From: Selaginella moellendorffii
Taxonomy: Eukaryota > Plantae > Lycopodiophyta
Direction: 5' to 3'
DNA: 64,000 nucleotides
Assembly: GCF_000143415.4 (NCBI RefSeq)
Contig: NW_003314263.1
Span: 2,358,041 to 2,422,040, forward strand
A program made the position numbers and the translations under genes. The notes under the pieces were generated by a model. The model worked only from the letters and a program-made list of their open reading frames with translations. It was not told the DNA's origin and ran no database searches. Positions 2,773-62,044 of the stretch are shown here, piece after piece; positions within the stretch are counted from its first letter, which is position 1, and the number at the start of each line of letters is the position of its first letter.

Positions 2773-3238
2773 TGTCGAGGGCCAGAGCCAGCTCAAGAAT
2801 AAGACTTGGTCCAAGTCGGGGTTTTTTCCTTCTTTTTGGTTATAGTGGGGGGAATAAGGGAATATTCTGCTGAAAACAGGGTGTGTCCCTTGGTGCCAGA
2901 GGTTGACGATAGGGGGGATGGCCAATTTCCAGGCATAGGATGTGTGTAGAGGGGGAGGGAGTGAAATAAAGAGAAGGTCTTGGAAGGATGCCTCGTACAA
3001 CAGCCTTGGAGCGCGTGGAGCGGAGGTTGGCAGTGCAGTGGCGACTACGGTTGTTCGAGGAGCGTATCACAGCGAGAATCGCTCAAGATCAACCAATCTG
3101 TGTGAGTAGTCTGACTTGTGGGCAGCCCTGGGTTAGGATGTTGGCAGAGGTTCTAGCAGAGGTCGCTGACGAGGCTAGAGATGAGGCTAGGCAGCAGTGA
3201 TTCTCCACGTCGCTGGTGTGTTGTCGCGAGGAGCGACA
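2773..3238 (+). repeat. 5' LTR of element A
   Basis: TGTCGAGG...GCGACA; near-identical to 16212-16677 (about 9 substitutions by manual count). Confidence 0.95.
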
Positions 3239-3243
3239 TCTTT

Positions 3244-3266
3244 TGGTGCACTGCCCGGGAAGCGAA
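3244..3266 (+). promoter_or_regulatory. Primer-binding site of element A (tRNA-Gly-like)
   Basis: TGGTGCACTGCCCGGGAAGCGAA just after the LTR; reverse complement TTCGCTTCCCGGGCAGTGCACCA resembles a tRNA-Gly 3' end. Confidence 0.6.
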
Positions 3267-3351
3267 GTGAGCGTGGAGATTGTGGTAGAAGGGTGAGCGC
3301 TAGGAGAAGCCGGGCTGCCCTCACCAAATCGAGGCCGTTCCTTCTTGGTGT

Positions 3352-3603
3352 ATGAGCCAAAGAAGACAAGAGTATTTGGCGAGACTTGTAGAAGCACAAG
3401 AGCGAGAGGAAAGACGAACGAAGCAGAGACGTGAGAGAGAGGCGAGAATTCTTGCGAGAAATCTGCCACTGGTTCATGAGCCTGAGAGTCCAAGAGCGAG
3501 GAGTGCAAATCCTCATCCAAGCAGTCCTGTTAGCGAGCAGGAGAACAATCAGGAACAAGAAGACGAGTGGCAGGAGTTCCAGTTGTCACCGCCATGACAA
3601 CAG
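3352..3603 (+). pseudogene. N-terminal part of element A gag, interrupted by element B
   Basis: ORF MSQRRQEYL... continues in frame after removing B (11142 onward) into the 11211 ORF; contains TGA at 3595. Confidence 0.75.
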
Positions 3604-4752
3604 TGTAAGGAACCGACTCCCCGAGATGTCGTAGGCTAAAGGATCCCCAAAAGCTTGACCGAAGTGACAAAGAGTTCATCGGATGGGACCAAGTCGAGGA
3701 TCGAGTCCAAGACCGACTCTAGGACCGAGTTCGAGATAGAGTCCGGAATCGAGTCCGAGACCGACTCGGGGACCGAGTTCGAGTCCGAGTTCGAAACCGA
3801 GTTCGAGACGGAGTCCGAGATCCGAAATCGGGTCCAAGACCGAGTCTGAGGTCGAGTCCGAGGTCGGGTCCGAGATCGGGTCCGAGATCGAGTCCGTGAT
3901 CGAGTCCGAACCCGAATCCGAAGTCGGATCCGAAATCGGGTCCAAGATCGAGCCAGAGACTAAGTCCAAATACTAATACGGGTCAAGGGGTGAAAGCCCA
4001 AAGCGTGCGTCTCCCAGGGGGGGGGGGCTGCCCGGGGGTTCCAAAAGTATAGTAGGGATAGTGAGGTCCAGGAACCAGTTTTGAAGGGACTCTCCAGTTG
4101 GGTTTCCAAACCGACTTGAGGTTGGGACTGGGACCGAGGGGCCTTGGGTGGGAGTGAGCATGGACTTGGCTGGTGCCGGAGGGGCCATCCAAGGAAGTGC
4201 TCAAGAGCAGCTCCCACTCCCGAAAAGGAAACCGATTGCGGTGCTCCCGGCTCATGTGGAGTGGTGCCCCACTTGAGTACCATGCGGCTCATTGGTCCTC
4301 GCCCTTCCTAGGGGCTTGGGCCTTCCTTCGGGATGGAAGTGGGGGGCGAGAGGTACCCATACCGGGCCGCTAGGCCACGGTGTTTCGCCCCGGCGTCCCG
4401 AAGCAAGTGTTGCACTCAAGACTTGGGATTTAGAGGGTCCCATGATCAAGTCTTGTGGTACCAAGGGATGTTAGGAACCTGGAAGCTTGGTGTGCTTGGC
4501 TGCTTGTGCTTGCGGGGAGTGTAGCCGAACCTTAAGTCCAGTCTAACCCGGGGAGGGGGATTGGGAGTGATTTGGGAATCCATGGAAGGATGGCTAACAC
4601 TCCGTTGCTCGTGCAGTGAGTAGCTGAAACCAAGTAGGAGCTGGTACCATAGGCGAGAACCTTGGCGAGGGAACTTAGCAAAAGCCAAGGCAGTGTTGGA
4701 CGGATAGGCGAGGTAAGCTGGCAAAGTGGAAAGGAAAAATTTGTGGCTTACA
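3604..4752 (+). repeat. 5' LTR of element B, with internal CCGAG(T/A)-type hexamer array (~3690-3960) and G-run (~4017-4028)
   Basis: About 99% identical to 9987-11136 by manual comparison. Confidence 0.95.
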
Positions 4753-4755
4753 ATT

Positions 4756-4768
4756 TGGTATCGGAGCC
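4756..4768 (+). promoter_or_regulatory. PBS of element B (initiator tRNA-Met type)
   Basis: TGGTATCGGAGCC, one mismatch to the canonical TGGTATCAGAGC. Confidence 0.9.
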
Positions 4769-4811
4769 TTCTCCTCAGTTCTAGCGAAGGATAGAGGTGG
4801 ATTGCTGGGAG

Positions 4812-7800
4812 ATGGCAAGGGCAGGGCGTAAGCGAACCCAGGCGGAGACAGAACCTCCGCCAGAGCTGGAGCCTCCGGTCGAACAAGAGGCTATGGATGA
4901 GGAATCCTTGCATGAGGAGGACTCTAGTGAGGAAACTTCCAAACAGGAGTCCGGTGGCGAGGTTCGGTCGTCCAAGGCTCGATTGGACGTTCTAGAAGGT
5001 CAATTGGCGCAGACCAATGCCCTGCTGGAGACTCTCGTACGCAAGCTAAAGCGTGACGAGAAACGGAAGAAAAGGCGAAAGACTGCGGATGCTGGCAGCG
5101 TAGAAGGTGCGGACCCTTCGGCAGGGACTGAGGCAAAACCAGACAAGGTCGAACAGACCGAAGTGGAATCAGTCCCTCAGGCAGTTCCCAAGTACAAACC
5201 AAAGCCCCCACCGGTGTTCAAGGGAGTGAACGACTATAAGGTTGTGGAGGATTGGTTTTACGATATGGAGGACTACTTCCGAGCGTTACGGTTACCGAGC
5301 TCGGAGAAGGTCCCATGTGCAAAACCATACTTGGCAGATAATGCCAAGTCTTGGTGGAGAACAACGGAGGCCAACGAAGGACCGGTGGCCACCTGGGACA
5401 TGATGAAGGCGAGGATCCACGCGACATACGTTCCTCCGAATGCCACTCTGCATCTGAGAGATGAGCTGAGTAGGCTGAAGCAGACTGGAACCATCCAGGA
5501 ATATGTGAATGGGTTCATGGCAAAGAGGATACTTGTCACGGACATGGGGGATATGGATGCGTTCCATGCCTTTATATCAGGTTTGCAAACCTGGGCTCGC
5601 GGTGAGGTGATGCGCTGGAACCCGACCAACTACAAGGAAGCGTTGGATGCGGCCATCAAGGTGCATTTCAACGATAACCTGCGAAAGGGGAACACGACGG
5701 GGTCGGGATCCACGTTTCACAAAGGGGCCAAACCGAGGGGAACATATAGCAGGGGGAAATTCAAGAAGAGTTTCTCTAAGAATGAGTCCTCGGGATTTCG
5801 GAAAGGCAAATCCAGTGGCCAGCGAGCAAGTACGTGGGGGAGTCAAGCGAAAAGAGACAAACCCACGGATAAGAAGGTCAAGTCATATAGCAGCGTGGGA
5901 AACAACGTATGCTATAACTGCGGTGAAGCGGGACACTTTTCGAGGGAATGTCCCTACCCGAAGAAGGCTAGAGCCAATATGGCCATCAAGTCGGGCGAAG
6001 TCCAAAATGAGGTATGTGATCCAGTCCCTAACTCAAAGTTACTCATTACACGAGCAACTTTGGTAGAGAGTCGTTCGCGACATCTACTAGCCCTCCGAGG
6101 GAAGCTCGGAGGTAGCTTTGTTAAGATCCTTATTGACACGGGTGCTTCGGATAATTTTGTGGCTGTAGACATAGTCCGGCAAGCCGGACTAACGGTGCAG
6201 CGGCTAGGCGAACCAAGGACTATAGAGTTTGTTCAAGGTAGCCAAAGCACCGATGAGGTACTTCGACAAGCGAAAGTCGAAGTAGGGACATGGAAGGTAG
6301 ACATGGATTTCACCGTGTTGGACATGGCGGGATTTGACGTGATCTTCGGAATGGATTGGTTCAATCGGTTCGTGGTAGCCCTCCATGGACAAGGTAGGAA
6401 CCTTGTGGTACTGGCGAATGCCCAAGGAAGAAGATCTAGGGTGGAAGCCCAGGATCTAAAGGTAGGGCAAAGCAAGGCCAAAGAATCCTGCTTAAACCTG
6501 GTGTCCACGAGAGGACAACTCACTAAAGGAACTAAGGCAGCCTTTTTGTGCTTACTCTCGGTGAAGAGTGACAAAAAGACAAGAACGGAAGAAGTGCCTT
6601 TAGTGATCCAGCGGGTGTTGGACCAATTCCAGGATACCATGCCGGAGGAGCTACCGGCGGGGCTGCCCCCAGCACGACCGATAGAACATAAGATTGAGCT
6701 GGTCGAGGTGCTGAGGCAGTGGTTCGTCCCCCTTATCGTTTGAACGAAAAAGAACTCAAGGAGCTCAAGTGCCAACTAGAGGAGTTGGTGGACAAAGGGT
6801 ATGTTAGGTTGAGCAAGTCGCCGTATGGGGCGCCGGTGTTATTTGTGAAAAAGAAAGATGGATCTATGCGCATGTGCATAGACTACCGCTTGCTCAACAA
6901 GTATACAAAGAAGAACAAGTACCCTTTGCCAAGGATTGAGGACCTGTTCGATAGGTTGGGAAAGGCAACATACTTCTCGAGGATTGACCTAAGGTCAGGA
7001 TACTACCAGATCAGGGTAGCCGAGGAAGATGTCGAGAAGACAACCTGTCGAACGAGGTATGGGAGCTTTGAGTTTCTGGTGATGCCCTTCGGGCTATGTA
7101 ATGCGCCGGCAACGTTTTCGGCGCTAATGAACCACGTCTTTGTACCCTATCTAGATCACTTCGTGGTCGTCTATATCGACGACATCCTGATCTATAGCGA
7201 GACGCTAGAAGAGCATGCCGAACACTTGGCGAAGGTGTTTGAGAAACTAAGGGAACACAAGCTGTATGCTAAAGAGAGCAAATGTGACTTTGCTCAACAA
7301 GAGGTAAAGTTTCTCGGGCATGTGGTGGGCCAGGACGGGCTCAAGGTGGACCCGGAGAAGGTCCAAGCGATCCAGGAATGGGAGCGACCATCGAATGTAC
7401 ATGAGTTGAGGGCGTTCCTGGGGCTATGCAACTACTATCGAAAGTTTATCAGACACTATTCGAGAGTAGCCCTGCCCTTAACGGACCAAACAGGAAAAGG
7501 GAAGATGGTATGGACAGCAGAATGCGAGGCGGCATTCGTCCACCTCAAAGGGAAGTTGAGGAAGGCTCCCGTATTGGCATTGCCAGACTTTGGTAAGGAC
7601 TTTGAGGTAGAAACGGATGCTTCGGACTTTGCGTTGGGCGCAGTTCTGAAGCAAGACAACCATCCGGTAGCGTTCTTCTCGAAGAAGCTGGACAAGGCTC
7701 AACGGAAGTGGCCTGCCCATGAGAAGGAATTGTTTGCGGTGGTCAAGGCACTCAAGGAGTGGCGACACTACCTTGGGAGACACTTCAAGGTTTACACGGA

Positions 7801-9583
7801 CAATGTGGCAACGAAACACTTCTTGTCACAGCCCGACCTAAGAGGGAAACAAGGTCGGTGGGCCAATGCCTTGGCCGAGTTTGATTGCGAAATTCTGTAC
7901 AAGCCTGGGAAGAGCAACATCGTGGCGGATGCGCTAAGTCGAAAAGCGAGCTTGAAGTTGGCAATATCCAGCGCAACAGCAACCTTCTGGGACGATGTGC
8001 GGACAGCATATGAGAACGATGGTCTAGCACAAGAAGTGTTGCTGAGGAATCTAGAGGCGCGGGAAGCTCACCAGAGAGGTGAGCTGCCAACGGAAGAGAG
8101 AACGGGCTATGCGGAACGCAACGGACTCATTTATTACAAGCAAACGAGGGTGTATGTTCCAGAAGGGGAACTAAGGAAGGTGGCCTTAGAAGAGTGTCAT
8201 GACGGACCTCTTGCGGGACACGGCGGAGTGCCCAAGACGATGGGCTTACTCAAGAGGAAGTACCATTGGCCAGATATGGCTAAGGACGTCCAAGACTATG
8301 TAAAGACATGTCCAACATGTCAGCAGGTCAAAGCCGTGACTAAGGCTAGTGGGGGCTTGTTGCAAAGCATCCCAATTCCAGATCGCCCGTGGAAATGTCT
8401 TACGATGGACTTCATCACGGGACTACCCCCAAGCGAGGGGTTCGATGCGATATTCGTGGTGGTGGACCGATTTTCAAAGATGGCACATTTCATACCCACC
8501 ACAACGGACGTGGATGCGGAAGGTGTGGCGAAGCTGTTCTTTGAACAAGTGGTTCGAGTGCGGGGAAGGCCGGAAGAGATTATCTCAGATCGAGATAAGA
8601 TCTTCACTAGTAGGTTCTGGAGGACACTCCTAGAACAGTATCGCACCAAATTGAAATTCAGCACAGCCTATCACCCACAGACAGGTAATGGGTATTAAGT
8701 CAAGATTGATGGCACTAACACTTCTTGACAGACGGACAAACGGAAAGGGTGAATAGGCAGCTGGAGGATTATTTGCGATGCTATGTCTCGGGAGACCAGA
8801 CCGACTGGGTAAGTCATTTGGGACTTGCGGAAATGTGTTATAACAACTCACCACACTCAAGCATCGGGGTGAGTCCATGGGAAGTCATCAATGGGCGAGC
8901 TATTGAAGGTCCTGTGGAACTCGGCGTGGCCGAGTATCATGGAGAGTTACCCGCAGTGGAGGCATTCACGGCGGAAAGACTCAACATTTGGAATCTAGTG
9001 AGGGATTCCTTGGAACGGGCTCAACAAAGGCAAACTAAGTACGCGAACCAAAAGCGTCGGGATGTGGAGTTCCAAGCTGGGGAGAAGGTGTGGCTGAACA
9101 CCAAGAACCTCAGACTACCAAGCTGGATCAGCCGAAAGTTGACCCAAAGGTAAAGACGCATGTATTCCTGTAAATGAATTGATCTTGAGTTCCTTAAGCA
9201 GGTTCGTGGGGCCTTATGAAATTGAGGCACGAATCGGTAAAGTGGCTTACCGACTCCGACTTCCTCGAGAGATGGGGAAGATGCACCCAGTGTTCCACGT
9301 GAACTTACTCAAGCCGTACTTTGAGGATCCGCTTCGCAAGGACCAAGTGAGACCTTTACCTGAGGTTATCCAAGGGGAAGAGGAATACGAAGTCGAGGCC
9401 ATCCTCAATGCGCGCAAGAGCAAGCGACAAGGACGCGAGGTGAGAGAGTTCCATGTGAAGTGGAAAGGATTTCCACACTGCGAAGCAACATGGGAACCGG
9501 AGGAGAACCTAGCGAACGCACGAGATCTAGTGGAGGAATTTCTGCAAGGCAGAACTTTATGTACTTATGCAAAATTCAATTAA
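4812..9583 (+). CDS. Element B gag-pol polyprotein (Gag, CCHC knuckle, protease, RT, RNase H, integrase, chromodomain); 1-nt frameshift at ~6708 and two predicted introns (8685-8731, 9150-9201)
   Basis: Motifs [39 protein letters not shown] zinc finger, [12 protein letters not shown]^DGQTER, KLTQR^FVGPY and EYEVEAIL...VKWKGF...TWEPEENL. Confidence 0.9.
8685..8731 (+). other. Predicted 47-nt GT-AG intron in element B integrase core
   Basis: GTAATG...CTAAC...TTCTTGACAG; removal gives ACA G|AC GGA CAA ACG GAA = [13 protein letters not shown] and joins the 6719 and 8725 ORFs in frame. Confidence 0.85.
9150..9201 (+). other. Predicted 52-nt GT-AG intron before the GPY/F motif and chromodomain of element B
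   Basis: AG|GTAAAG...TTCCTTAAGCAG|G; removal gives [12 protein letters not shown] and joins the 8725 and 9179 ORFs in frame. Confidence 0.85.
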
Positions 9584-9678
9584 AAATATCAATTTGCAAA
9601 GTTGAGCAAATGGCATATGTTGGGACCCGAAGGCGCGCCAAAGGTAAGCTAATTAGCATGGGTTGGATAGGTCGACCA

Positions 9679-9923
9679 GGCGTAGGGCACTACGCCCGAC
9701 TCCCTGCGGGGATGTCGAATCCGTAGACGTATTCTACGGAGGTTGGGTTCGAGTCCCAACCCCCTAGTAAAGCAAGGCTGGGTTCAAGTCCCGACCCTAT
9801 ACTAGGGCGTGGTGAGGTGAGGAGTATAGGGACACCTATATTCCGTTGTCATGGGCTCTTGGCCGGGGAGGCTAACTTAGGCACACCGCTAAGTGGGGGG
9901 ATGCCCCCGGAGACATGGACAAC
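9679..9923 (+). ncRNA. Putative conserved cis-acting structured RNA in the 3' UTR of element B
   Basis: Series of hairpins, two T-loop hairpins and a multibranch module; homologs at 29453-29682 and 29751-29863 show compensatory changes. Confidence 0.7.
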
Positions 9924-9974
9924 AAGTCGTAGGATAAAACGAGACGTTCAATGTGGGCATCGAACTTCTTCTAT

Positions 9975-9985
9975 GGGTGGTGGAG
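9975..9985 (+). promoter_or_regulatory. Polypurine tract of element B
   Basis: GGGTGGTGGAG immediately before the 3' LTR; identical in element C. Confidence 0.75.
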
Positions 9986-9986
9986 T

Positions 9987-11136
9987 TGTAAGGAACCGAC
10001 TCCCCGAGATGTCGTAGGCTAAAGGATCCCCAAAAGCTTGACCGAAGTGACAAAGAGTTCATCGGATGGGACCAAGTCGAGGATCGAGTCCAAGACCGAC
10101 TCTAGGACCGAGTTCGAGATAGAGTCCGGAATCGAGTCCGAGACCGACTCGGGGACCGAGTTCGAGTCCGAGTTCGAGACCGAGTTCGAGACGGAGTCCG
10201 AGATCCGAAATCGGGTCCAAGACCGAGTCCGAGGTCGAGTCCGAGGTCGAGTCCGAGATCGGGTCCGAGATCGAGTCCGTGATCGAGTCCGAACCCGAAT
10301 CCGAAGTCGGATCCGAAATCGGGTCCGAGATCGAGCCAGAGACTAAGTCCAAATACTAATACGGGTCAAGGGGTGAAAGCCCAAAGCGTGCGTCTCCCAG
10401 GGGGGGGGGGGGCTGCAGGGGGTTCCAAAAGTATAGTAGGGATAGTGAGGTCCAGGAACCAGTTTTGAAGGGACTCTCCAGTTGGGCTTCCAAACCGACT
10501 TGAGGTTGGGACTGGGACCGAGGGGCCTTGGGTGGGAGTGAGCATGGACTTGGCTGGTGCCGGAGGGGCCATCCAAGGAAGTGCTCAAGAGTAGCTCCCA
10601 CTCCCGAAAGGGAAACCGATTGCGGTGCTCCCGGCTCATGTGGAGTGGTGCCCCACTTGAGTACCATGCGGCTCATTAGTCCTCGCCCTTCCTAGGGGCT
10701 TGGGCCTTCCTTCGGGATGGAAGTGGGGGGCGAGAGGTACCCATACCGGGCCGCTAGGCCACGGTGTTTCGCCCCGGCGTCCCGAAGCAAGTGTTGCACT
10801 CAAGACTTGGGATTTAGAGGGTCCCATGATCAAGTCTTGTGGTACCAAGGGATGTTAGGAACCTGGAAGCTTGGTGTGCTTGGCTGCTTGTGCTTGCGGG
10901 GAGTGTAGCCGAACCTTAAGTCCAGTCTAACTCGGGGAGGGGGATTGGGAGTGATTTGGGAATCCATGGAAGGATGGCTAACACTCCGTTGCTCATGCAG
11001 TGAGTAGCTGAAACCAAGTAGGAGCTGGTACCATAGGCGAGAACCTTGGCGAGGGAACTTAGCAAAAGCCAAGGCAGTGTTGGACGGATAGGCGAGGTAA
11101 GCTGGCAAAGTGGAAAGGAAAAATTTGTGGCTTACA
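9987..11136 (+). repeat. 3' LTR of element B
   Basis: Direct repeat of 3604-4752, followed by TSD AACAG. Confidence 0.95.
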
Positions 11137-11141
11137 AACAG

Positions 11142-14100
11142 CCAATAGAGCAGCAATAGCAACCACCAATCCAACAAGTACAACAACCTCGGCAGCAACA
11201 AGCAGGGAATATGGCAACGACAAAAATGAAGTATACCATCTTTAATGGTATGGGAGATCCAGATGCCCACGTGACAGCGTTTGAGAATACGTCTACAGCA
11301 AATGATGAGGCAGATGCAGCAGATCGCAGGAAACTTTTTCCAGCCACGTTACAGGGCGTAGCTGCAGAATGGATGGCTCAAGTTCCAGCAGCGACAGATT
11401 GGGCAGCATTGAGAGCATCCTTTTTGGCTACCTTTCGGCCAGTAGGCTTTTCACAGCGACTCATGAGTGATCTGAGTCATTTTCAACTCTTGCCTGGCGA
11501 GAGTTTACAAAGCTATACATTAAGGTTCAAGGGATTGATCCTCAAGAAGCAGCCACAACCGACAGAAGAAGAGCAAGCACAGTATTACACAAATGGCTTG
11601 CCTCATGCGGTTAGCTTTCATGTCTCATGCCATAATCCACAAACTTTGGCCGATGCAATTCGTCTGGCGGGAACCTGGGAGCAAGCGCAGCTCAAGATGA
11701 GACACCACTTCAGTAATCTTGGACTGGGAGCTTTTGGCGATGGAATGATGAATTCCATGATGGGAGGACTCGGAAGCACACCGCAACAACCAATACCTAT
11801 TGGACAGCAGCCTTTTGGAGTCTTTGGAACAGGTCTTGGGATGATGGACTATAGCCGCCAACAACAGCAACAATGGCAAGCTTCAACAAGTGTAGTTCCA
11901 AATCCAGCGGCAACTACAGTGGACATCCAAGCAGAGATGAAGAAAATAAAGGAAGACATGGTGGAAGCCATGACAAAAAAGATGAGTGACATGCAATTGA
12001 ACTCAGAGGGGTACAGAGCAGGCCACAGCCCGTGCGGCAGCGAGAAAACATCTGGTGTGTGCGATGCAACAATTATGGACACTACCCAAATGAGTGTCCA
12101 CAGCCAGTGGTGAATCGAGAGAAGTGTCAATATTGCCGGCGAACTAATCATCGCTCAGAGGATTGTTTTTACAAGCCAGGAAATCCAGCAATCCCTGCAA
12201 GTTACATCCAGACTGCGCCATCATCACCACCATCTTTGGCTCAAGCACCGACCTTCTTTCAACGCCCGTTTTCTCCTCCAGTCCAGACCATGAGCTACGA
12301 GCCAGTGATTCAGGGGTATACGCCAGATATGATTCCAGTATATGCAGCAGCACCAATTCCAGGTGGCCGTGGACGAGGAGCTCCCTGTAGAGGACCTGTT
12401 CAATGCTGGAATTGCGATGAGATGGGCCACATTTCACCAAACTGTCCACATCCCAGGAAGCAGATTGGGTACCAGCCCATATGTGGAATCTGTCAGACAC
12501 AGGGCTTGCACGAGCAGGACAATTGCCCGCATAAGCTCAAGCCAAGCAAGGGGAAGGGGGTTGTAGAAAGCAATGCAATTTTTGTCCAGCAAGCTGCACC
12601 AGAATCTGGAGTTATGACACGGGCACGAAGGCGTCAACAGATGGAGAACTCTATAATTGAGGATGCTGAGGAGAAGGATGACCCAGAGAAAATTGCAAGA
12701 AAGAACCGCAAGGAGAAAAGAGAGAGCAAGCAGCCCAAATCAGATCCACCGGCTACAAATGACCAAGATAAACCAGTCCCTGATTCTGAAATAACTACCC
12801 CAGCTAGGGCTCTTGACAAGGGCCAGGGAGTTGCCAAGGCGCTACGTAAAAAGTGGAAATCAGTGGAAGCTGAATCTGGAAACGCAGCCGTACAATATTC
12901 TTCAAGACTTGGATAGTCAACGCCCGAACATCACATTCGCCCAGCTTTTGCAATTGGCTCCAGGCATGAGGAAAGTGTTGGCCGTGGCCATGAAGGGACA
13001 TCGAGAAGTACTGGTTAATTCAGCTTGGCCCCTTATCACAGATCTCAGTTCCCCCTGTATAGATGTGGAGACACAAGGTGAGCTAATCCGTCGTGCTGTG
13101 ATCGATGGTGGAAGTGGAGTGAATATTTTGCCTGAGGAGACCTGGCGAAAGTTCAATCTTCCAGAACCAGTTCCAGTGCCATTTATGGTTAAAATGGCCG
13201 ACCAGAGACGTGTCCAGCCAAGAGGAATCGTGACCGGTGTTCGCACTCAGATTGCTGGTCTAGTTTTCCACATCGATTTCGTGGTTTTGAGGATGAAGGA
13301 GGGCATGTTGGGCTATCCACTGCTGCTCGGACGTCCTTGGCTTCTCCAGGCGGCAGCTGTGCATAATTGGCGTACAGGAATTCTTGCCATTGGCGATGGC
13401 AATAATCGTGTTAAAGTCCAAGTTCATTTTCGCCCTAGGGCACGGCGAGTACTTGGGGCAGAACAGGAGGATGAAGACAGCTCTGATACATCCAATTCTA
13501 GTAGCCAGACAAACAGTGAGGACGATGAGGAGGATAGCAGCAACACAACCAGTTGTGAGGAGCTAGAAATGGTGGATGTGGCTGCTATCACCAAGAATTC
13601 CTGGGGTAAGCCTCTTTCAGCATGCAACACTGAGGAGCTTGAGAGCTGGCTGTGGGGAAAGGATGGAGAGTTGCCTTTTGGTAGCGTACAGGTGGTGGAA
13701 GAAGAGACTGGTGCCAGACAGTGGCGAGGACGGAGCCCTTTTCCTCGCTACATCGCTACGGTGCTACACGAGAAGTGGATGGACGGCATTTTGAATCCTG
13801 ATGTGAGGAACAATTTTTTGAGCGAGGAACTAGTTGCCACTTGCCAGCTCGAAGCTATTCCAGTGGAGCAGCCATGTTGGGCTATGCGAGCAGGGGAGCT
13901 GAAGCGGATAGTATATAGAGTTCCAGGTTTGACGATCAAGATACCAGAATTTCCAGTCGACTTGGATTTTCTGGTGGCACCTTGGAAAATGGACAACTAT
14001 ATCCTGCTGGGACGAGATTTCTTAAAGGCAGTAAGAGTGTCTCATCAGTGGAATGATCCGCTTCACTTGTGGATTCCAAATCCACATGGCAATGACAGAG

Positions 14101-16200
14101 TGCAGATCGACATGGAAGAAGGGGACGAGCCCAGAGAGCAAGTTTTTATCACGGTGTTGGAATCAAGAGCTGAAAATCAAGCTGTGCCAATGCCAGTGGC
14201 GTTCCAGACAGTGGATAGTTCTGAGGCCTGGATGGGAGGAACCAAAGCGATGCATCTTACAGCATCTTTGGAGAATGTGGAACTCACAGCAATGGTGGAT
14301 CCAGGAGCACTTGGCAACTTTTTGACAAAAGATGGAGCAGCTCGAGCAAGCTTGGCGATTATAGCTCTTCCTGAGCATTACATTGCCGTTTGTGCTGATG
14401 GTGGAGTTTTTCCAGTGCTGGGTCTCGTGAGTTCCAACATGGTGATTGGTGAGGGAGACTTTCACGAGGTGCCTTTTTATGTGATCGAGGGCACTGTGAC
14501 TAGCGTACCAGTTACTTTGGGAGCAGCTTGGCTTTTCCAGGTACAGGCTAGTCACGACTATGTGACTGGTACTCTGGTGGTGGAAGATGATAATCATCGA
14601 TATCGGACAATCATCTTGTCTGATATCAGTGCGTTTGATTATCACTTTTCTTACATGCTGAAAGTCGAGAAGGCTTCAAGGTTAAAAAGCAAGAAAGTGA
14701 CAGCATGCAAGGATCGTAGTATGCTCAAGTCATCACCAACTCAGCTAATTGAGATCGGGAATGGACCTCAAGATCTAGCTGGTCATCAACTTTCCGTGGA
14801 CGTGGTGCCAACAGCTGATTTGGAAGCAGGAAATTATCCCAGCTATTTTTTTAAGGAGCAGGTTGCTGATCTTCCACTCAAGGAGACTTCCGCTCGTTCT
14901 CAAGTCGATTCAGATTATTTTGGAAGGGCACCCCAGACACAGGCTGTGTTTATGGAGCAGGTTGGTGACGAGCGACGTGAGTTACTGGTGGGACACCAAC
15001 TCACCAAGGAGGAGGTGGAAGCTTATCGTCAACTATTTTTGGAGTTTCGAGATGGTGTTCTGAGGCGCTGCATTCTTCCTCATGAGGTGCAGCAGGTGAT
15101 TGGCTCTTGCCATGATTCTCCCTACGGTGGGCATTATGCAGCAGCAGCGACTATACGGCTTGTGCTCCAAACTGGTTATTGGTGGCCAACGCTCCAGCAG
15201 GATGTGGCGAAATTTGTGAGAAGTTGTGATCCATGCCAGTGTGTTGGGCGTCCTACTCGACGAGATGCAATGCCGTTACATCCGATTATTCCAGCTCTAC
15301 CTTTTGAGAAGTGGGGAATCGACTTCATGGGGCCGTTCAAGCCTACGTGACATCGCCGGAATCGTTATATCTTGGTCTGCACAGACTATGTGACCAAGTG
15401 GGTGGAAGCTGAGGCTTTTACTGAGGACACGACAGAGAAGGTAGCAGGATTCCTCTACAAGAATATCATCACGCGTTTCGGATGCCCACTTGAGCTTGTG
15501 AGTGATTGAGGTACGCATTTTATTAATGCGGTCATTGCAGCTCTCACAACCAAGTATGGCATTTCCCATCGACGTTCGACACCATATCATCCAAGAGCAA
15601 ACGGCCAAGTTGAGAGAACCAATAAGACACTATGCGACACCATGACTAAGCTTTGCAACGCAAGTGCTAGCGACTGGGATACCAAACTTCTTGATGCGCT
15701 ATGGGCTTACAGGGTTGCCTACAAGGTAACTACACGGTTCTCACCATTTCAATTGGTTTATGGCCAGGAGGTGATCCTTCCTCTCGAGCTGGAAGTTCCT
15801 TTTTTGCGAACAGCGGTAGCTCACAATTATGACTGGGATGGAGCTGTTCAGCAGCGGCTGGAGCAGTTGGAGAAGCTGGATGAGACTCGCCTCCTTGCTT
15901 TCCAAGCCCGTGAAGTTCTCCAACGTCAACGCAAGAAGTGGTATGATCGTCATTTACGGGCTAAGAGTTTTCAGGAAGGAGATCTCGTGCTGCTATATGA
16001 GAGCAAGTACTGGAAGCGTCCGGGAAAGCTTAAGATCCGCTGGATTGGGCCTTATCGCGTGAAGGCTGTGAATATCAATGGCTCAGTCAAGCTGGAGGAT
16101 TTTGCTGGTAATCCTTTGCCCACACCGGTGAACGGAGCTTGACTGCGGTGCTACCAAGTTCCATCTGGAGAGGAGTGCTCCGGGGATGGAGCACAATAGT
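11142..16200 (+). pseudogene. Element A gag-pol remnant: Gag, four zinc knuckles, three protease-like domains, integrase; no RT/RNase H
   Basis: ORFs 11211-12113, 12032-12916, 12813-15350 and 15642-16142; integrase motifs CHDSPYGGHY, CDPCQ, WGIDFMGP, SD*GTHF, YHPRANGQVE, WIGPY; frameshifts and TGA stops. Confidence 0.9.
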
Positions 16201-16211
16201 CGCCGGGGTGA

Positions 16212-16677
16212 TGTCGAGGGCCAGAGCCAGCTCAAGAATAAGACTTGGTCCAAGTCGGGGTTTTTTCCTTCTTTTTGGTTATAGTGGGGGGAATAAGGGA
16301 ATATTCTGCTGAAAACAGGGTGCGTCCCTTGGTGCCAGAGGTTGACGATAGGGGGGATGGCCAATTTCCAGGCATAGGATGTGTGTAGAGGGGGAGGGAG
16401 TGAAATAAAGAGAAGGTCTTGGAAGGATGCCTCGTCCAATAGCCTTGGAGCGCGTGGAGCGGAGGTTGGCAGTGCAGCGGCGACTACGGTTGTTCGAGGA
16501 GCGTATCACAGCGAGAATCGTTCAAGATCAACCAATCTGTGTGAGTTGTCCGACTTGTGGGCAGCCCTGGGTTAGGATGTTGGCAGAGGTTCTAGTAGAG
16601 GTCGCTGACGAGGCTAGAGACGAGGCTAGGCAGCAGTGATTCTCCACGTCGCTGGTGTGTTGTCGCGAGGAGCGACA
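16212..16677 (+). repeat. 3' LTR of element A
   Basis: Direct repeat of 2773-3238, followed by TSD GTGTG. Confidence 0.95.
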
Positions 16678-18559: not shown

Positions 18560-19400
18560 CCTAAAATAGAGTTGAATGGCCAAAAGTTTAATGAGCATAA
18601 CATATTTGAGCCAAAAGCTTTGTCTTGAAAAGTTGAGAGTAGGTATGGAATTCCCAAAGAAGCACTCAAGGAATGAACACAAAATAATTGATAAGTCTCT
18701 AGAAAAAAATAAAGAATGATTGACATATAGCAAATGTTGTGATATATGAAAATGTCGAGACAAAAGTCCTAGAACCCAAGGACTTGAAGTCAATATAGTT
18801 TTGATACTGCTATTTAGCAAGTACCCTAATTGGGATGAAGACCATAGAGAATGGACTCTTCCAAAGGGTTAAATGTGTAATTAAATAATTAAATTAGAAT
18901 GAAAAATTTAATCACTTACATTTGGTTTTAAAGTTGTTTCTTAGTCTAACTTTTATTAGGGGTTAAATATATTATCACTTAATATTGACATTTAAAGGTC
19001 CTAGAAATGATGCTATACTTAAGAAGTAGGATGTCATGATAGCATGACTCTTTATTTTGGTTCATAGGTGAACTTGAAGCAAGTGTGATAGATAAAAAAG
19101 GGGTCAATAAAAGAACAACTTTGGGATCTTGAGAAATATAAATGTTTTTCTTTAGAGAATTGAGGATATAATCTATATTAAAGTTAAGTTTTGCAAATTT
19201 GGCTTTAATGTAGTTGTGGTAGATAACTATGGACTTGAAGAAAAAAGACTTCTAGACAATAAAGAAACCATAGGATGGAAGGTAAAATTATTTTGTGTGT
19301 GAGAGTTTCTTGGCTCTTGAAGCAAGGGAAAAAGCTCAAGGTTAGGTAACAAAGAAGGGTCTTGAACAAGAGACAACACACTCATGGATAGTTTAGAAAG
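18560..19400 (+). mobile_element. Ancient decayed copy of element C family (LTR 3' end, PBS, start of internal region)
   Basis: 18895-19010 TAGAATGAAAAATTTAATCACTTACATTTGGTTTTAAAGTTGTTTCTTAGTCTAACTTTTATT aligns to 26943-27010 with mainly C>T/G>A changes; homology continues to ~19300. Boundaries approximate. Confidence 0.75.
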
Positions 19401-21365: not shown

Positions 21366-21803
21366 TGTAAAGAACTAACTCCCCGATGTGTCATATGCTA
21401 AATGATCCATGAAATCACAACTGGAACAATAAAAATTTTACTCCAAGATTGAGTTCAAGACCACATCTAAGATAGAGGTTGAGACCAAGTCTGAGATCCA
21501 AGATCAGGTCCGAGACCAAGTTTGAGATTAAGTTTGAGGTTGAGTCCGATTAAGTCCAAGATTAAGTTTGAGACTAAGTCAGAATACTAATATAGGTCAT
21601 ATGGTGAAAGCCTCAAGTGATTGTGTTCACAAGGGGGGGGGGGGGGGGGGGGGGGGTTTGGGGGTCTCGTCTCACTTGATGATAAACCCATTGATCAAAA
21701 AATCAAGTTTACTAGTAGCGTGGAAAATAATATATGCTATAATTGAGGTGAAGTGGGGCATTTTTCAAGAGAATGTCCCTACCTAAAGAAGGCCAGAGTC
21801 AAT
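21366..21803 (+). mobile_element. Decayed, internally deleted copy of element B family (LTR 5' part joined to gag zinc-knuckle fragment)
   Basis: TGTAAAGAACTAACTCCCCG, degenerate hexamer array, GGTGAAAGCC and G24 run match LTR B; ~21683-21803 matches ~5859-5978. Confidence 0.8.
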
Positions 21804-22542: not shown

Positions 22543-22903
22543 TGTCAGGAATCCCCTAATTCTTGCCACATTCCTAACTCTTGCCGGATTCCTGACCTGC
22601 AGACCACATTCCTAACTCTCGAGACACTTCCCTATTCCTGACTCTCGAGACACTTCCTGATTCCTGAGTCTCGAGCCACATTCCTGATGATGATGTGGCA
22701 CCTCCTCGACCTCAGCTATGTTTAGGCCGTCCTCGATCCAAGAGTGGTGGAGCTTCATCAACCTATAGTATATATAGGTTAGCCTTGTTCCATTTCTCCA
22801 CAATCTGAATCAACGCCAGTCTAAGGCCTTTTTTTTGTTTCCACTAGCTTTTCTCTTTGTCTTTTTGCATTTTCCAGTCTTGATCTTGTTAGGGGTCTTG
22901 ACA
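22543..22903 (+). repeat. 5' LTR of element D
   Basis: TGTCAGG...CTTGACA; internal ~26-bp tandem units; TATA-like TATATATA at ~22769. Confidence 0.95.
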
Positions 22904-22905
22904 GT

Positions 22906-22920
22906 TTGATTCAGATTGTG
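22906..22920 (+). promoter_or_regulatory. Self-priming PBS of element D
   Basis: TTGATTCAGATTGTG is the exact reverse complement of CACAATCTGAATCAA (22799-22813) inside the LTR; no TGG tRNA-type PBS is present. Confidence 0.85.
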
Positions 22921-23005
22921 TTTTTTCGTTTTTTGATTTAGCTCATTTTGATTGTTTGATTACCTTTGCCTTTTTTTCCCCCTTTTTTTTTCTTTCTTCT
23001 TGCCA

Positions 23006-23977
23006 ATGGAGTCTCCAAGCCATCCTGATTTCTTTGCTGAAGTCCTTGCAAAAATCCAGTCTGAGAATACCGAGCTGAAGGCGACCCTTCTTCGCATGCA
23101 GCAGGAGCTTGCTTCACTTTCGGCTCAAGGATCCAGCAAAGTTCCTGAACCGAAGGTGAGCTTCCCGGCGAAATTTTCAGGCAAGCGTTCGGAGCTTCAC
23201 GGATTCCTGAACCAGATGGAGTTGATCTTCGCACTTCAACATCGGCGGTACCCTACTCCCGAGTCTCAAATCGGCGCGATTGGGACGTTGCTCAAAGGTG
23301 CAGCTTTGTCATGGTTTTCTCCTCTTCTGGAGAAGAGCATGAAAGGGGTCGTGGTTCCAGAGCTGATGGATCTTCAATTGTTCAAAGAGAAGCTCGAAGC
23401 ATGTTTTGGCGACACGAATCGGGTTCGGGCTGCTACCACAAAGATGAGACGTCTCTCTCAGGGGTCTCGTCCTACCTCGATCTACGCTGCAGAGTTCCAA
23501 CTCCTTGCTTTGGACACTCAGTGGGATGAGCGGGCCCTGATTGACCAATTTCGTTTCGGCCTCAACAATAGTGTCAAGGATTTGTTGCTCACCATGCAGG
23601 ATCCCGAGGACCTGTCGGATGCCATCAACAAAGCTGTTCGATGTGACAATCGTCTCTTTGAACGTCGTCAAGAAAGTCGCCGCGCCGCTGTTTTTCCGTC
23701 CCAGACTCAGGAATCCCAGCTTGAGTCTTCGGGGCATACTCCTGAACCTACTGCTCCGGTTCCGATGGATATTTCTGGTACTCCCCGACTCATTAGAGGG
23801 AAGTTGAGTCCTGCTGAGAAGCAACGTCGAATATCTCATAATCTTTGCCTCTATTGTGCTGATCCTAATCACAAAGCAGCTGTATATCCCAAGAACCCTC
23901 CTCGACTGCTCGAGTTCACTCTGCCTCAAAGTCCACCTCTATTGCAGTCGGGAAACGACCCTGTCCAAACAGAGTAG
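23006..23977 (+). CDS. Element D gag (Ty3/PEG10-like capsid, degenerate CCHC knuckle [14 protein letters not shown])
   Basis: [33 protein letters not shown]...YAAEF and [11 protein letters not shown] are typical chromovirus Gag motifs. Confidence 0.9.
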
Positions 23978-23998
23978 GAGCTGTCTGTTTGGACTCCC
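23950..23998 (+). promoter_or_regulatory. -1 programmed ribosomal frameshift signal between gag and pol of D
   Basis: Slippery G GGA AAC (23950-23956), 6-nt spacer, perfect 11-bp stem GTCCAAACAGA/TCTGTTTGGAC (23963-23994); pol is in the -1 frame and open from the slip site. Confidence 0.85.
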
Positions 23999-25419
23999 CG
24001 AATAAAAATCACTTTTCTTCTTTATCAAGCTCCTCACCACCTTTCATCAAAGCCACCACCAATTCCCGCAACTTCCGCGTCCTATGTCTCCTTTCTTTCA
24101 CCAGACTATCAGGACTCAAGGCTTTGGCGTTACTGGACTCGGGTGCAACTTCCTGCTTCATGGACACGGACTTTGCTGCTCGACATCACGTTCCTCTTTC
24201 TCCTACCATACGGGATTTGAGGGTTGAAGGCATCAGCGGGCATTTTGTGTCTCCATCTTCTGGACTTAGGGAAACGTTGCCCGTTCAAGTACACATCGGG
24301 TCCACCGTTACCGATATCGCCTTTAACATCATCAACAGCAAGTCCTCCTCTGTGGTGCTCGGTCTTCCTTGGTTCCAACTACATCAGCCTCAGATCTGTT
24401 GGAAGGAATTACAGCTCATCTCTCCCACGGCTTCCCCTGCTGTTCATCGAGTCCGAATCAGGAAAAGTTCCCTAAACTCAAATCGGGGTTCTGTTCCTGA
24501 CTCTATAAAGTTTTCACCCTCTTCTTTTTCCTCTCTTCCATCTTACACTGGACTATATCCTCGTCTCATCATTCCATTTAGTCGTATGCCTCCTCCTATC
24601 TCCACAATCACTATGAAAGAACTCCTTCATGAAGAACCTCTTTTTCTTTTTGCTTTGCATGTTTCTCCTGTCAGTCTTCCTGAGAAGTATCATGATTTTG
24701 GGGATGTGTTTGACAAGAAAAAAGCTAGTGTACTGCCTGTTCATCGGCCTTATGATTGTCCCATTGATTTGCAGGAAGGAGCGTCACCTCCGTGGGGGCC
24801 TATCTACGGGTTATCCCCGTCCGAGCTTAAGGCCCTCAAAGAGTATGTGGATGAGAACCTTGCCTCGGGCTACATTCAGCATTCGCAGTCCCCGGCTGGA
24901 GCGCCTGTTTTCTTTGTCAAGAAGAAGGATGGGAGCTTGCGGCTAGTCATCGACTACCGAGGTTTGAACAAGGTGACTGTTTGGAACCGTTATCTGCTGC
25001 CCCTGATCTCGGACCTGTTGGAACGCCTCGGCGGTGCCCGCTTCTTCACCAAGATCGACCTTCGTGGAGCATACAACCTGATCCGGATCCGGCCTGGTGA
25101 TGAATGGAAGACTGCGTTCCGAACCCGCTATGGCCACTTCGAGTACACTGTCATGCCATTTGGCTTGACAAATGCTCCAGCAGTTTTCTGTGAGACACAA
25201 AATCCCTAGGCCCCAAAGTGGAGCCGGAAGGGCGCCACATGGTAGTGGCCGAAGCGAGAGCCAAACGAGCGTAACACGTTTGGACCAAAAGCTCCGACTT
25301 GAAAAGTCAAGAGCGGGAGTGGAACTCCCAACGAAGTGCTCGAGGAACGAGCACGAAGCGAGCAAAAGGCGAGGCTCCAAAAAGGGACCCAAAAGGACCA
25401 ACACATGACACATGGGAGT

Positions 25420-25965
25420 GTCCGAGATGGACTCGAGTTGGAGTCCGAAGTGGAGTCCGAGATGGACTCGAGTTGGAGTCCGAAGTGGAGTCCGAGATGG
25501 ACCCGAGTTGGAGTCCGAAGTGGAGTCCGAGGTGGACCCGAGATGGACCCGAGTTGGAGTCCGAAGTGGAGTCCGAGATGGACCCGAGATGGAGTCCGAG
25601 ATGGAGTCCGAGATGGAGTCCGAGGTGGACCCGAGATGGACCCGAAATGGAGTCCGAGATGGAGTCCGAGGTGGACCCGAGATGGACCCGAAATGGAGTC
25701 CGAGATGGAGTCCGAGATGGACCCGAGATGGAGTCCGAGATGGAGTCCGAGATGGACCCGAGATGGACCCGAGATGGAGTCCGAGATGGAGTCCGAAGTC
25801 GAGACCGAGACCGGGACCGAGACCGGGACCGAGACCGAGACCGAGACCGAGATTGGGACCGAGACCGAGACCGAGGCCGAGGCCGAGATCGAGCCCGAGC
25901 CCGAGTCCGAGTCCGAATCCGAGTCCGAGTCCGAGTCTGAGTCCGAGTCCGAGTCCGAGTCCGGA
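25420..25965 (+). repeat. Tandem 12-bp (GATGGAGTCCGA/GATGGACCCGA-type) and 6-bp (CCGAGA/CCGAGT) array in the C 5' LTR
   Basis: Directly visible; second copy at ~31296-31860 has three more hexamers. Confidence 0.95.
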
Positions 25966-28900
25966 GCCTGAGAGGGTGAAAGCCCAAAGCGTTCGTCTCC
26001 CAGACCCTGGGGGGTTTGGTGAGCTCCAAAAGTATAGTAGGGGGGAGGACTGCAGTGGAGCCAGTTTGGCCAGGAAAGGCCAGTTTGGCCCAGGAAGGCC
26101 AGACCCAGTGTTGGGTGATGAACTGACCACTGGGAAGTCCAAGACTAGAGTGAATACGGACCGACAAGCGGGGTAGCTTGGTGAAGTGTTCAAGAGCCGG
26201 CTCTAGTTCCCCCGGGAGATCGACTGGCCGATGCTCCCAGTCCAAGTGTGGGTGGCACTACCTACTTGGATACCAGGCGTGGCTCAACGGAACCTCACTC
26301 TAAGCCCATGGCTAGAGCACCTAAAGGCGATAGGTGGGGAGAGTACCCAGGTGGCTCGCGTAAGGCCACGGTGTTCCGAAATGTTGTCCCAAAGGCCCAG
26401 ACTGTGGAAAGGAAGAGGAGCAGTCCTCTGGGGTAGTGACCAAGGACACAGTCATGTGGTGGGGAAGTCCCAGAGGACCGTGGGACTTAGGGGTCGGGCC
26501 TGTGGGCCTCGATCCAGTGGCAGTGTTGGCAAACACGGCCAGGGGCAGAAAGGGACTTGGTAGGAACTGACAAAGGGACTTTGGGGAAGGCAATTCCCCA
26601 GGTCTGTGGGCATCCTAAGGATGCTAAGGAGTGGATCTAGGATGACCCCTCGTGGACACATGGCCCAGTCTTGGAGAGACGAGGTGGTGATGCAAGTGGT
26701 GTTGAACCACTAGTGCAGCAAAGGTGAATGGGCATGGCCTTAGCGTAACGGGCCGAGATGTCAGTGGTACCTTTGGGTGTCGGTCTCAGGACCGGACACG
26801 TGGAGCACTTGGACCAGGTGCAAGTGTGGAGTGGCATGGATGCCATTCTTGGGGCTAACAAGTCCCAAGTCCTGAATTGGACTGATGGAGGTGGTGAATG
26901 AGACTCCTCCAAGTGGTCGGAGGTGTGGTTAAGTGACTAAAGTAGAATGGAAAATTTAGTCGCTTACAATTTGGTATCGGAGCTGTTCCTTAGTCCGACT
27001 TTTATTGGTGCTCAAGTATATCACCACTAGTGTTGGCATCGGAAGGTCTGAGGAGTGGGCCTATCCTTGAGGAGTAGCAAGTCGGGAAGACATGGCTCTC
27101 CATTACAGTTCATGTGTGAACTTGTAGACGAGGTGGTGGATAGAAAAGGGCCAATAATGGAACGACTTTGGGATCTTGGGAACAGTGCAAGGTTTTCCTC
27201 ATTGAGTTGAGGATGTGATCCGGATGAGCATTTGTCTCAGCAAATTGGCTAAGGTTGTTGTGGTAAACAACTAAAGTTGGGATCACGGGAAAGATAGAGA
27301 CTCTAAAACAATAAAGGAGTCACAAGATTATCCTCATATAGTTGAGGTTGGTGCTCATGAATGTGAGACCAAAGGTAATGACCGTGGAAGGTCAAATACG
27401 GAAGAGGACTCAAGTCCTTGAAATGGTAGTCGGGGCTACCTTTAATAAATGCTGGAACAACCCAAGGAGTTGGGGGGTGTACTTAGAGATGAGTGGTATT
27501 CTCATCGCATGGACAAGTAGTCCTAAGGGGCAAAAGTTGCCCCCAGAGAACAAAATCAAGTGTCGGAGTAACACTTGTGAAAATAGTCCTTTTGAGTAGG
27601 ACAGGAATGCAAGAAGTGTATTCCAGTGAGCTAGTGCCTCACAAGTAAGACCTTACGGGTCTGTGGATTAACCAAGTCCAAAACTGCTGGATGACTCAAG
27701 TAGAGTCAAGGGATGGTCCTAAAAGGACTGATGGAAGCATTTGGACTGAGGTGTGTTGTACCCCACAAAGGATGGAGGGGGATCATAGGATCCAAGGATG
27801 AGAACAGAGGGTATCTCATCGATGGCAAAATGTGCCATGCTAAAGTTATGGGAAAGGTGTTCCTAGAAGAAAACAACTTTGACATAAAGTTATGTGTGAC
27901 CTCTATGGGGCAGTGCTAACGGATGGTTGGCATGAGAAAGAGTAGTGTTGGTCTTGGCAAAGACTTAGACACGAAAGGGAAATGTCATAGAGGTAGGCTC
28001 GTGGAGCCGATGGTGTGGAGACACTAAATGTGCCAAGGTGTGATACCTTGAGGCTATGTTGGTGGGTTCATGAGAACCCCTTGCCAAAGGAATCCCAATG
28101 GAAATGGGAATGGCATAGCCTAAGCTGCAGAGCATGCAGTTGGAGTGTGGTGACCCAGATAATGATGGAGGTGTGAAAGCACCAAGCAATGAGTTGTAGG
28201 ACTTGACAACTATGAGGCAACTAAGCAAGAGGTGCAAAATAACTGGTTAAACGGGTAGAAGGTAGCTACCCAAGACTTCTTAATAGCATAAGGAAGTTGG
28301 ATATACCCTTACGGGGGATAAGTTGCTTGGGTTGCGATATAGTAAGTCAATGTCATAAAAGGAAATACTCATTGTCAAGAAAGCCATCATTGGGACACCC
28401 AGACACTCTAGAACACCAGAAGGTGGTGTTTGATGTCGCGAGGGCAATGGATAAAGCCCAAGGGACTAAGTCCCTAGCGAATGATGGATAGAAGGTGCTA
28501 TCCAAATGTCCAAGGTTGCGGAGACAGGAGAGGACTGTCTACCCGAGTTGGACAAAGCCAAAAATGGAATTTTGGCAAGGCTAGTGATGGGCATGTAAAG
28601 GCCCATAAGCAACAATGTAATCCCAGTGTGTGGGATTATAAGGTGAGCATACCCGGATTGAGGAACCACTCCCTAGGCTATTGGGTAGGTTCATCCCTAA
28701 GAATACTTGCTAAGGCATGATAGAAAGTGCAAAGCTATCCTCCCGGTCTGGAGGAGAATGACCGAAGGAAAGGTGTGAAGCCAAAAGCAAGTAGTATTGG
28801 GATGGAATCGAACCATAGAAATCAAAGGGCATATCCAACAGTGGTTATGAAAGTTGGGAGTGGAGAATCAAGAGGGTGCTCGAGGATGTTGTTGCTAGCA

Positions 28901-29452
28901 ACCGTGATGCCATGGAGAGTCTAAAATATGGAATTATCCATGTTAGACTATATGGCAACTATAAAGCTTGCGAAAGGGGAGGCCTTAGCAAGCTGAGGGA
29001 CAGAGTTCCTTCAAGGTTCCCAAAGACGATTCTAGGTAGCATAGTACCTAGAAAGGCCAAGTGTAAATGGTTCATGGAACGCGCGAAATCAGAGTGGCGC
29101 AGCAGAAGCGTGGTCTTGGAGCTTGCCATGAGGCAAGGTTATCAAGGTTAGGGAAGTAGTTCCCGAGTGTTCAAAGAGAGGGCTTTGAACGAAAGTCGAT
29201 GGTCAAGGACTTTCACGCTTATGCAGGAACCATGTTACAATGGTCGGAGGACTTGCCAAGTGAGATTGGCACGTCAGGGGAACAAAGACCCTAGTTGAAG
29301 GTGATAACTTCAAAAAGGGTGGGCCATGGGGCCGAGCATGGAGGAGTCCATGCATGATCACAGACATGTCAAGTGAGAGGACTTGGCAGTGTGGAGGAAC
29401 TAGGTTCCTAAGCTGTGATCTGTAGCGCGCTTTAAAAATAGGTTGGTGCACC

Positions 29453-38937: not shown

Positions 38938-39046
38938 CCAAGCTAAAAATATGAATTTTTAGTCAAAATGTTCTCATAATTTCTTATTCAGAGTAATTAT
39001 ATTTCAGCTTGGCTAGATCAAGATTCTGCAATAACCTTTCTTGTCA
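38897..39046. repeat. Imperfect inverted repeat (foldback/MITE-like)
   Basis: TGACAAGAAAGG...GATCTAGCCAAGCT(A)AAA versus TTTCAGCTTGGCTAGATC...CCTTTCTTGTCA. Confidence 0.6.
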
Positions 39047-61962: not shown

Positions 61963-62044
61963 AGACAAAAACGATTTTTTTAATTCAAGAATGTTCTATG
62001 GTTTATAATATCAATCTTAAAGGTTAAAACTATTTAGCGCCTAA

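Follow-up and report, generated by a model that had tools for sequence, protein, structure and literature searches.

A folded RNA near the 3' end of a Selaginella moellendorffii chromovirus is shared with a non-coding companion element and may serve in genome RNA packaging

The 64-kb stretch of Selaginella moellendorffii DNA analysed here, called the window throughout, contains two LTR retrotransposons, B and C, each nested in another gypsy element (2773-16677 and 22543-35786). The subject of this study is a folded RNA of ~250 nt with tRNA-like loops, which lies within the 3' UTR of B, near its 3' end (9679-9923). The window also holds decayed fragments (B-like at 21554-21803, C-like at 18849-19229), the tRNA genes Ile-AAT and Val-CAC (61889-62117), a BAHD acyltransferase (53484-54413) 99% identical to a S. 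moellendorffii protein, an exact 896-nt tandem duplication (37146-38941) and a duplicated segment whose copies are 72% identical (39655-41416 versus 48735-50680). Element B is laid out as follows:

3604-11136, plus strand: element B, a Ty3/gypsy chromovirus, with LTRs at 3604-4752 and 9987-11136
4756-4767, plus strand: PBS of B, tRNA-Met type
8685-8731, plus strand: intron 1, 47 nt, GT-AG, with a CTAAC branch-like motif, inside the integrase core
9150-9201, plus strand: intron 2, 52 nt, GT-AG, preceding the chromodomain exon
9578-9620, plus strand: AT-rich stretch with AATTAAA (9578-9584) over the pol stop codon (9581-9583), the putative proximal poly(A) region
9946-9986, plus strand: pre-PPT hairpin (9946-9965) and PPT (9971-9986), common to C (31024-31064)

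The LTRs of B are 98.8% identical and its TSD is AACAG. B codes for Gag (which contains a CCHC knuckle), PR, RT, RH and integrase; the last exon can be aligned with the SH3/chromodomain region of the other chromovirus in the window. In a Pol tree (71 of 111 usable sequences), B falls inside a 20-member clade with seed-plant elements (support 0.999); an origin from moss Tcn1 or from fungi was considered and then dropped. B matches the described chromovirus SM1-Galahad, on features rather than on sequence. SM1-Galahad is described as a Galadriel-clade chromovirus of S. moellendorffii, present in hundreds of copies and 7.5 kb long, with an LTR of more than 1 kb containing a poly-G tract, a tRNA-Met PBS, a 3.9-kb gag-pol ORF that ends early, two short downstream ORFs and a group I chromodomain (PMC3350952); B has the same size, poly-G LTR, Met PBS, ORF layout and group I chromodomain. 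SM2-Galahad, by contrast, is described as having a single uninterrupted ORF. The poly-G tract of B follows a tandem repeat array in the LTR. In this copy gag-pol is split over two overlapping frames (4785-6743 and 6698-8698), as against the single ORF described for the family, and the copy may be defective at ~6700.

The unspliced frame of B meets a stop at 8696-8698, inside the integrase core. Both introns are skipped in one contig of run X16, and one intron each in two contigs of run X18; that these runs, and run X9, consist of RNA is a guess, and 7 of the 24 listed runs were examined. The spliced contigs, two studies being represented, terminate at 9540 and 9535, ~140 nt short of the folded element and without any loose end listed, and depth in X16 and X18 is zero from 9597 to 10100, contig ends being a weak hint as to transcript ends. 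Run X9 yields unspliced contigs, one of which extends to 9697. Contig depth in DNA run X1, when summed, is similar across the introns and their flanks, and no joint falls at an intron boundary among those listed (15 of 47); most genomic copies thus appear to keep the introns. The 'broken' chromodomain ORFs of published SM1-Galahad are spliced exons, the two short ORFs of B being exons and the word 'intron' being absent from the main text of the original description (PMC3350952). The folded element probably sits only on unspliced genome RNA. Splicing may in addition set the dose of integrase, as the reading frame of unspliced RNA closes within the integrase core.

The folded RNA comprises two domains, preceded by a self-complementary octamer:

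9670-9677, plus strand: self-complementary octamer GGTCGACC, just 5' of P1; its C counterpart, GGTGCACC, is at 29445-29452
9679-9807, plus strand: 5' domain, with P1 (9679-9696), P2 (9697-9717), P3 (9720-9740), T-arm hairpin T1 (9741-9761) and stem P5 (9762-9807), which encloses T-arm hairpin T2 (9776-9796)
9808-9923, plus strand: 3' domain, with the strand CGTGGTGA (9808-9815), the GACA hairpin P7 (9821-9844) and stem P8 (9845-9923), which closes a four-way junction with P9, P10 and P11
9860-9874, 9875-9894 and 9895-9908, plus strand: junction arms P9, P10 (loop GCACACCG) and P11 (loop GATG)

Element C, in which the folded RNA recurs, is organized as follows:

25189-32862, plus strand: element C, a non-coding, LARD-like LTR element, with LTRs at 25189-26968 and 31065-32862
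26973-31064, plus strand: interior of C, its longest stop-free stretch being at most 115 codons
29453-29683, plus strand: copy C1 of the folded RNA, both domains, P1 loop GGAG
29752-29863, plus strand: copy C2, 3' domain only, P10 loop GTGCACCG

The LTRs of C are 98.2% identical, with the TSD TTTTC. C has the same termini, PBS and PPT as B, and its LTR is 72% like that of B over 335 nt. The LTRs of both elements carry related 11-12-nt tandem repeat arrays (3670-3990, 10053-10350, 25376-26081 and 31252-31975). The interior of C has no match to the proteins of B. With its LTRs, PBS, PPT and long, structured, non-coding interior, C resembles LARD elements as these are described (PMC7215508), from which it differs by sharing a defined covarying module with an identifiable autonomous partner. 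Its 4.1-kb interior contains 83 short hairpins versus 18.2 +/- 5.3 in shuffles, and all 17 of the 240-nt windows folded across it have z-scores of -2 or below; because the whole interior is rich in hairpins, it is homology with B, rather than stability, that singles the element out in C. The preliminary description had presented this element as the main internal segment common to B and C, and this proved correct: at E<1e-10, only the folded element and the 42 nt before the PPT align between the two interiors, to which an 11-nt PBS match can be added. As C encodes no protein, what it retains should act in cis.

Short hairpins are also in excess in coding DNA. The coding region of B has 53, versus 20.6 +/- 4.2 in shuffles, and its RT-integrase part 23, versus 9.7 +/- 2.8 under codon shuffling. 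An excess of ~2-2.8 fold over shuffles was seen at 4785-9580 of the window and in loci L074, L075, L077, L080, L091 and L092; it is absent from the two neighbouring elements of the window, A and D, and from L068, L069 and L078. The small pre-PPT hairpin motif (9946-9965 and 31024-31043) is found in B, in C and in 11 of the 11 relatives examined (L068, L069, L072, L074-L078, L085, L091 and L092).

All helices named in the preliminary description are present in B (9679-9923), in C1 (29453-29683) and, for the 3' domain, in C2 (29752-29863), and the folded structure is real. The folding z-score is -5.2 for B (9670-9930; none of 200 shuffles as stable), -4.1 for C1 and -3.0 for C2, and of ten segments folded along the 3' part of B the one that begins at 9680 is the most stable. 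The compensatory stem changes claimed earlier were borne out by counting. Between B and C1, 71 pairs comprise 47 identical, 12 with double changes, 10 with single changes that still pair and 2 broken; under a null of random substitutions the mean is 17.6 broken pairs, and none of 100,000 runs reached 2 or fewer. Between B and C2, 27 pairs comprise 21 identical, 3 double, 3 single and none broken (P=0.014). The pair registers were set by hand after both sequences had been viewed, so that these counts favour structure; they exclude P2, which is not alignable, and the bulged P7 of C2, and four double changes, those of P9, may reflect a replaced arm. In a model-fitted alignment of the three sequences, which also leans towards structure, 95.7% of cells are paired, as against 38-51% in slid controls, and 11 of 39 pairs show double changes, a result that none of 500 shuffles equalled.

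Evidence partly independent of the hand-set B/C count comes from variation among genomic contigs of DNA run X1. Among 37 variants at a frequency of at least 2%, nine break a pair, and all nine are G>A changes in CG/CHG context at no more than 6.7%, as is expected from decay after insertion. Stem variants outside this context keep pairing in six of six cases, and none of the nine variants at 10% or more, two of which are probably from C-family contigs, breaks a pair. These data indicate that selection acts at the RNA level on the folded element, all copies and contigs coming from a single species, S. moellendorffii.

The preliminary description had stems changing while loops stayed fixed, and this holds for part of the structure: the GACA, GATG and CACCG loops, the strand CGTGGTGA and, with one change, the T-loops are conserved, whereas the loops of P2, P3 and P9 and the 5' half of the P10 loop are not. 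The P9 loop reads GGGGA, GGGGAG or GTAA across copies, and P1 has a GGCA loop in the present copy of B, as against GGAG in C1 and most contigs. C-type genomic contigs have an apparent third tandem T-loop hairpin (at window 9735-9768), and the number of T-arms may vary. The proposed TGGTG/CACCG pseudoknot can pair in all three copies, but both of its sides are invariant and thus provide no covariation. The change in the P10 loop of C2 is confined to the half unable to pair with TGGTG, which fits the pseudoknot without proving it. Likewise, the 2-bp kiss that GACA and GAUG could form shows no covariation among the copies compared, and we would speculate that both tertiary contacts would be hard to make at once within one four-way junction. 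An octamer palindrome is present in both B and C; the predicted fold does not expose it in a loop, and 8-nt palindromes occur at a background of 3-5 per kb. The P10 loop of C2 contains GTGCAC. Self-complementary octamers (GGCGCGCC/AGCGCGCT and GGTCGACC/GGTGCACC) cluster upstream of the element, at 9632-9677 in B and 29424-29452 in C. GGAG loops are not unique to P1, four being found among the confident hairpins of C.

That the element matches no hammerhead, HDV, twister, tRNA or 5S RNA, as first surmised, agrees with a search of Rfam 15, in which nothing reached the gathering thresholds; with pistol, hatchet, hairpin and TLS families included, the best E values in the region were 0.55-9, far below threshold. 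ARAGORN finds no tRNA at the element, and the resemblance to a tRNA or tRNA-derived SINE head is limited to the T-arms, no cloverleaf with D and anticodon arms and no A-box plus B-box being found. A model of the 3' domain, a search suggested in the preliminary description, finds only the three known copies within the 64-kb window and, in 96 further retroelement loci out of 146 loci collected, no match with E below 1. Loci L027-L146 lack the T-loop motif of the 5' domain on their sense strand; three retroelement loci among them (L039, L046 and L101) have a T-loop/B-box motif on the minus strand. Protein scans gave 33 loci, then 79 loci, the second covering 6 of 64 parts. A protein search of viral contigs gave 11 loci, of which 10 are distant retroelements without the motif and one, L003, was inspected by eye only. 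Pattern scans returned 3 chance-like matches in one case, 20 tandem T-loop matches, mostly in phage tRNA arrays, in another, and none in a further one. In the phage tRNA arrays (L007-L026), an isolated T-arm remnant often directly follows a tRNA, and these remnants are probably deletion scars. A strict pattern, suited to close relatives only, had no match in metagenomes, and three runs from other organisms had no matching contigs, which is no proof of absence. The motif is in none of the 11 close relatives examined. The folded module, known from one species, therefore looks lineage-specific.

The published account of SM1-Galahad mentions, in its section 2.1, neither a structure in the 3' UTR nor a non-coding partner (PMC3350952), and we found no description of the folded RNA, of the introns or of partner C in the literature searched, where just two papers mention Galahad together with Selaginella; supplements (PMC3350952, PMC6317226) or repeat databases could note the introns. 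The structured RNA is thus apparently undescribed, while the host retrotransposon family is already known. The earlier suggestion of an undescribed cis-acting RNA is upheld by the covariation, by retention of the element in non-coding C and by the lack of both a Rfam match and a description.

What might this RNA do? The reading we favour, tentatively and by analogy with known systems, is that it could be a packaging/dimerisation signal for Gag, located at the 3' end and exploited by C. The element is kept by a non-autonomous derivative and is under structural selection, and, in support of packaging, the interiors of B and the protein-less C have no other substantial homology. Packaging is also favoured because C has doubled the 3' domain and P1 usually has a GGAG tetraloop, and because parallels exist with the MuLV signal, in the palindrome and the two complementary GAxx tetraloops, and with brome mosaic virus (BMV), in the T-arm mimic. 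In the MuLV and gammaretroviral signal, as reviewed, palindromes are likewise followed by two hairpins with kissing-capable GAxx tetraloops, the MuLV dimer signal consisting of palindromes and two heterologous GACG kissing hairpins; it differs in lying in the 5' leader and in its GACG loops, as compared with the 3' UTR, the GACA and GAUG loops and a palindrome that is not presented in a loop here, and the T-arms and the four-way junction are extras of the spikemoss element (PMC5874298). The GGAG tetraloop is reported to be bound by HIV-1 NC, although swapping the GGAG loop of HIV had no significant effect on packaging (PMC7599994). BMV template recruitment is reported to need a T-arm mimic: box B of BMV RNA3 is also an internal T-arm-mimic hairpin that selects RNA for replication, but it is a single hairpin in an RNA virus, whereas two stand in tandem here (apparently three in some C-type contigs) in an LTR element (PMC13191261, PMC5869524).

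In such a scheme, splicing would give the complete integrase-chromodomain mRNA, which would likely be polyadenylated near 9580-9620 and hence lack the element, the PPT and R; only unspliced read-through RNA would carry all three, which would explain why copies keep introns. The packaging/dimerisation signal would single out this unspliced genome RNA to be captured by Gag, and C would keep and partly double the element so that its partner's proteins also package C. By analogy, G-rich loops, GGAG among them, would be bound by the CCHC knuckle of Gag. A kissing contact of one C-G and one A-U pair could form between the GACA and GAUG loops, in the way of the MuLV GACG loops, and two RNAs could be joined through UGGUG/CACCG pairing and through the palindromic octamer; the T-arm hairpins, for their part, would help to draw the RNA away from translation, in the manner of box B of BMV. 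Separate RNA pools for translation and replication are described for EVD/Ty1-Copia, BARE and Ogre (PMC5580714, PMC3735527): in Ty1/Copia, splicing is coupled to premature termination (PMC5580714), and in BARE the genome RNA has no poly(A) (PMC3735527), in which case a BARE-like genome RNA would be missed by poly(A) libraries. The introns of EVD, BARE and Ogre set Gag versus Pol, as far as they are described, whereas the two introns of B, of 47-52 nt, interrupt integrase, and splicing completes integrase and chromodomain. Several points count against the packaging reading. The packaging signals reviewed lie near the 5' end (PMC5874298, PMC7599994), so that the 3' position speaks against it and matches export elements; the palindrome is neither rare nor predicted to be exposed; and, as spliced RNA without PPT and R could not be copied, intron retention needs no 3' packaging signal.

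The 3' position fits a nuclear export or stability element for intron-retaining genome RNA, like the MTE of MusD or the RTE of IAP, the main rival reading, which we regard as less likely than packaging. The element lies between pol and the 3' LTR of a transposon that retains introns, as do MTE, RTE and CTE, and the MusD MTE is, by description, also a multi-helix structure that adjoins the 3' LTR, makes kissing-loop and pseudoknot contacts and acts on unspliced RNA; it differs in using a mammalian export pathway and in that no T-arm mimics are described for it (PMC4588558, PMC3362945). B has introns and a 403-nt 3' UTR, as compared with a PPT 20-72 nt from the end of pol in 8 of the 11 close relatives (the other three had no match to the PPT pattern used) and the motif in none; the lack of introns in these relatives, however, is read from match lengths only. 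tRNA-export factors are a possible route for such RNA by way of the T-arm mimics. Against export, C doubles the 3' domain without any known intron, and plants are reported not to use the TAP/NXF1 receptor (PMC12786077). Export and packaging roles need not exclude each other.

A more elaborate scheme of RNA sorting at the 3' end, to which we give somewhat less credence than to export, would combine several of these elements. The two integrase introns and the upstream poly(A) site would make a complete-Pol mRNA that lacks the module; unspliced RNA, with its tandem T-arm mimics and kissing or pseudoknotted four-way junction, would be routed via host tRNA-handling factors into Gag particles; and a 4-kb, all-hairpin, non-coding parasite would have captured and amplified the module.

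Other readings are less probable still. The element might regulate splicing or the choice of poly(A) site, letting part of the transcripts pass the proximal site unspliced: its start lies ~90 nt downstream of the AATTAAA stretch, near which the spliced contigs give out, and EVD is described as coupling splicing and termination (PMC5580714). We hold this to be improbable, as it leaves the retention and duplication in C unexplained, the AT-rich stretch and the introns having no aligned counterpart there. A self-cleaving ribozyme, one of the functions first suggested, or a tRNA-like RNase P/Z substrate making an RNA end, would suit the compact multi-helix fold, the fixed loops, the possible pseudoknot and the T-arm adjoining the acceptor-like stem P5. 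Hammerhead ribozymes have a CUGANGA core with GAAA, and hairpin ribozymes a characteristic loop B; both core motifs are absent from both strands of the element. With no Rfam match at E up to 10 and no ARAGORN tRNA, with a perfect four-way junction that has no unpaired core, and with a cut that would sever the genome from its PPT and 3' LTR, we set the ribozyme aside and consider the whole reading very unlikely. It is equally hard, and slightly harder, to maintain that the T-loops are DNA-level B-boxes, that is, TFIIIC sites or part of a Pol III promoter, as in the tRNA- or 5S-derived parts of retroelements such as Cassandra. The motif GGTTCRAGTCC does have four exact matches, every one in the B/C elements, versus 0.05 expected; but no A-box-like match lies upstream, no T4 run follows for ~700 nt in B and 3,300 nt in C, and selection at the RNA level is suggested by G-U-preserving changes and by copy C2, which has no T-loops. 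Least credible is a T-box-like capture of primer tRNA, in which T-loops would clamp the tRNA elbow, UGGU would pair with the ACCA end and GAUG would read the Met anticodon, for although the element has a tRNA-Met PBS and TGGT and ATG are invariant in all three copies, the T-box consensus is absent, the matches span just 3-4 nt and a tetraloop is a poor specifier.

The choice and export of genome RNA by plant LTR retrotransposons form a largely untested field, and according to a 2025 review its export step still lacks direct study in plants (PMC12786077). The element described here provides a compact, covarying and bounded candidate, with a natural pair of autonomous element and parasite, and may account for the persistence of spliceosomal introns in an LTR element through reverse transcription.
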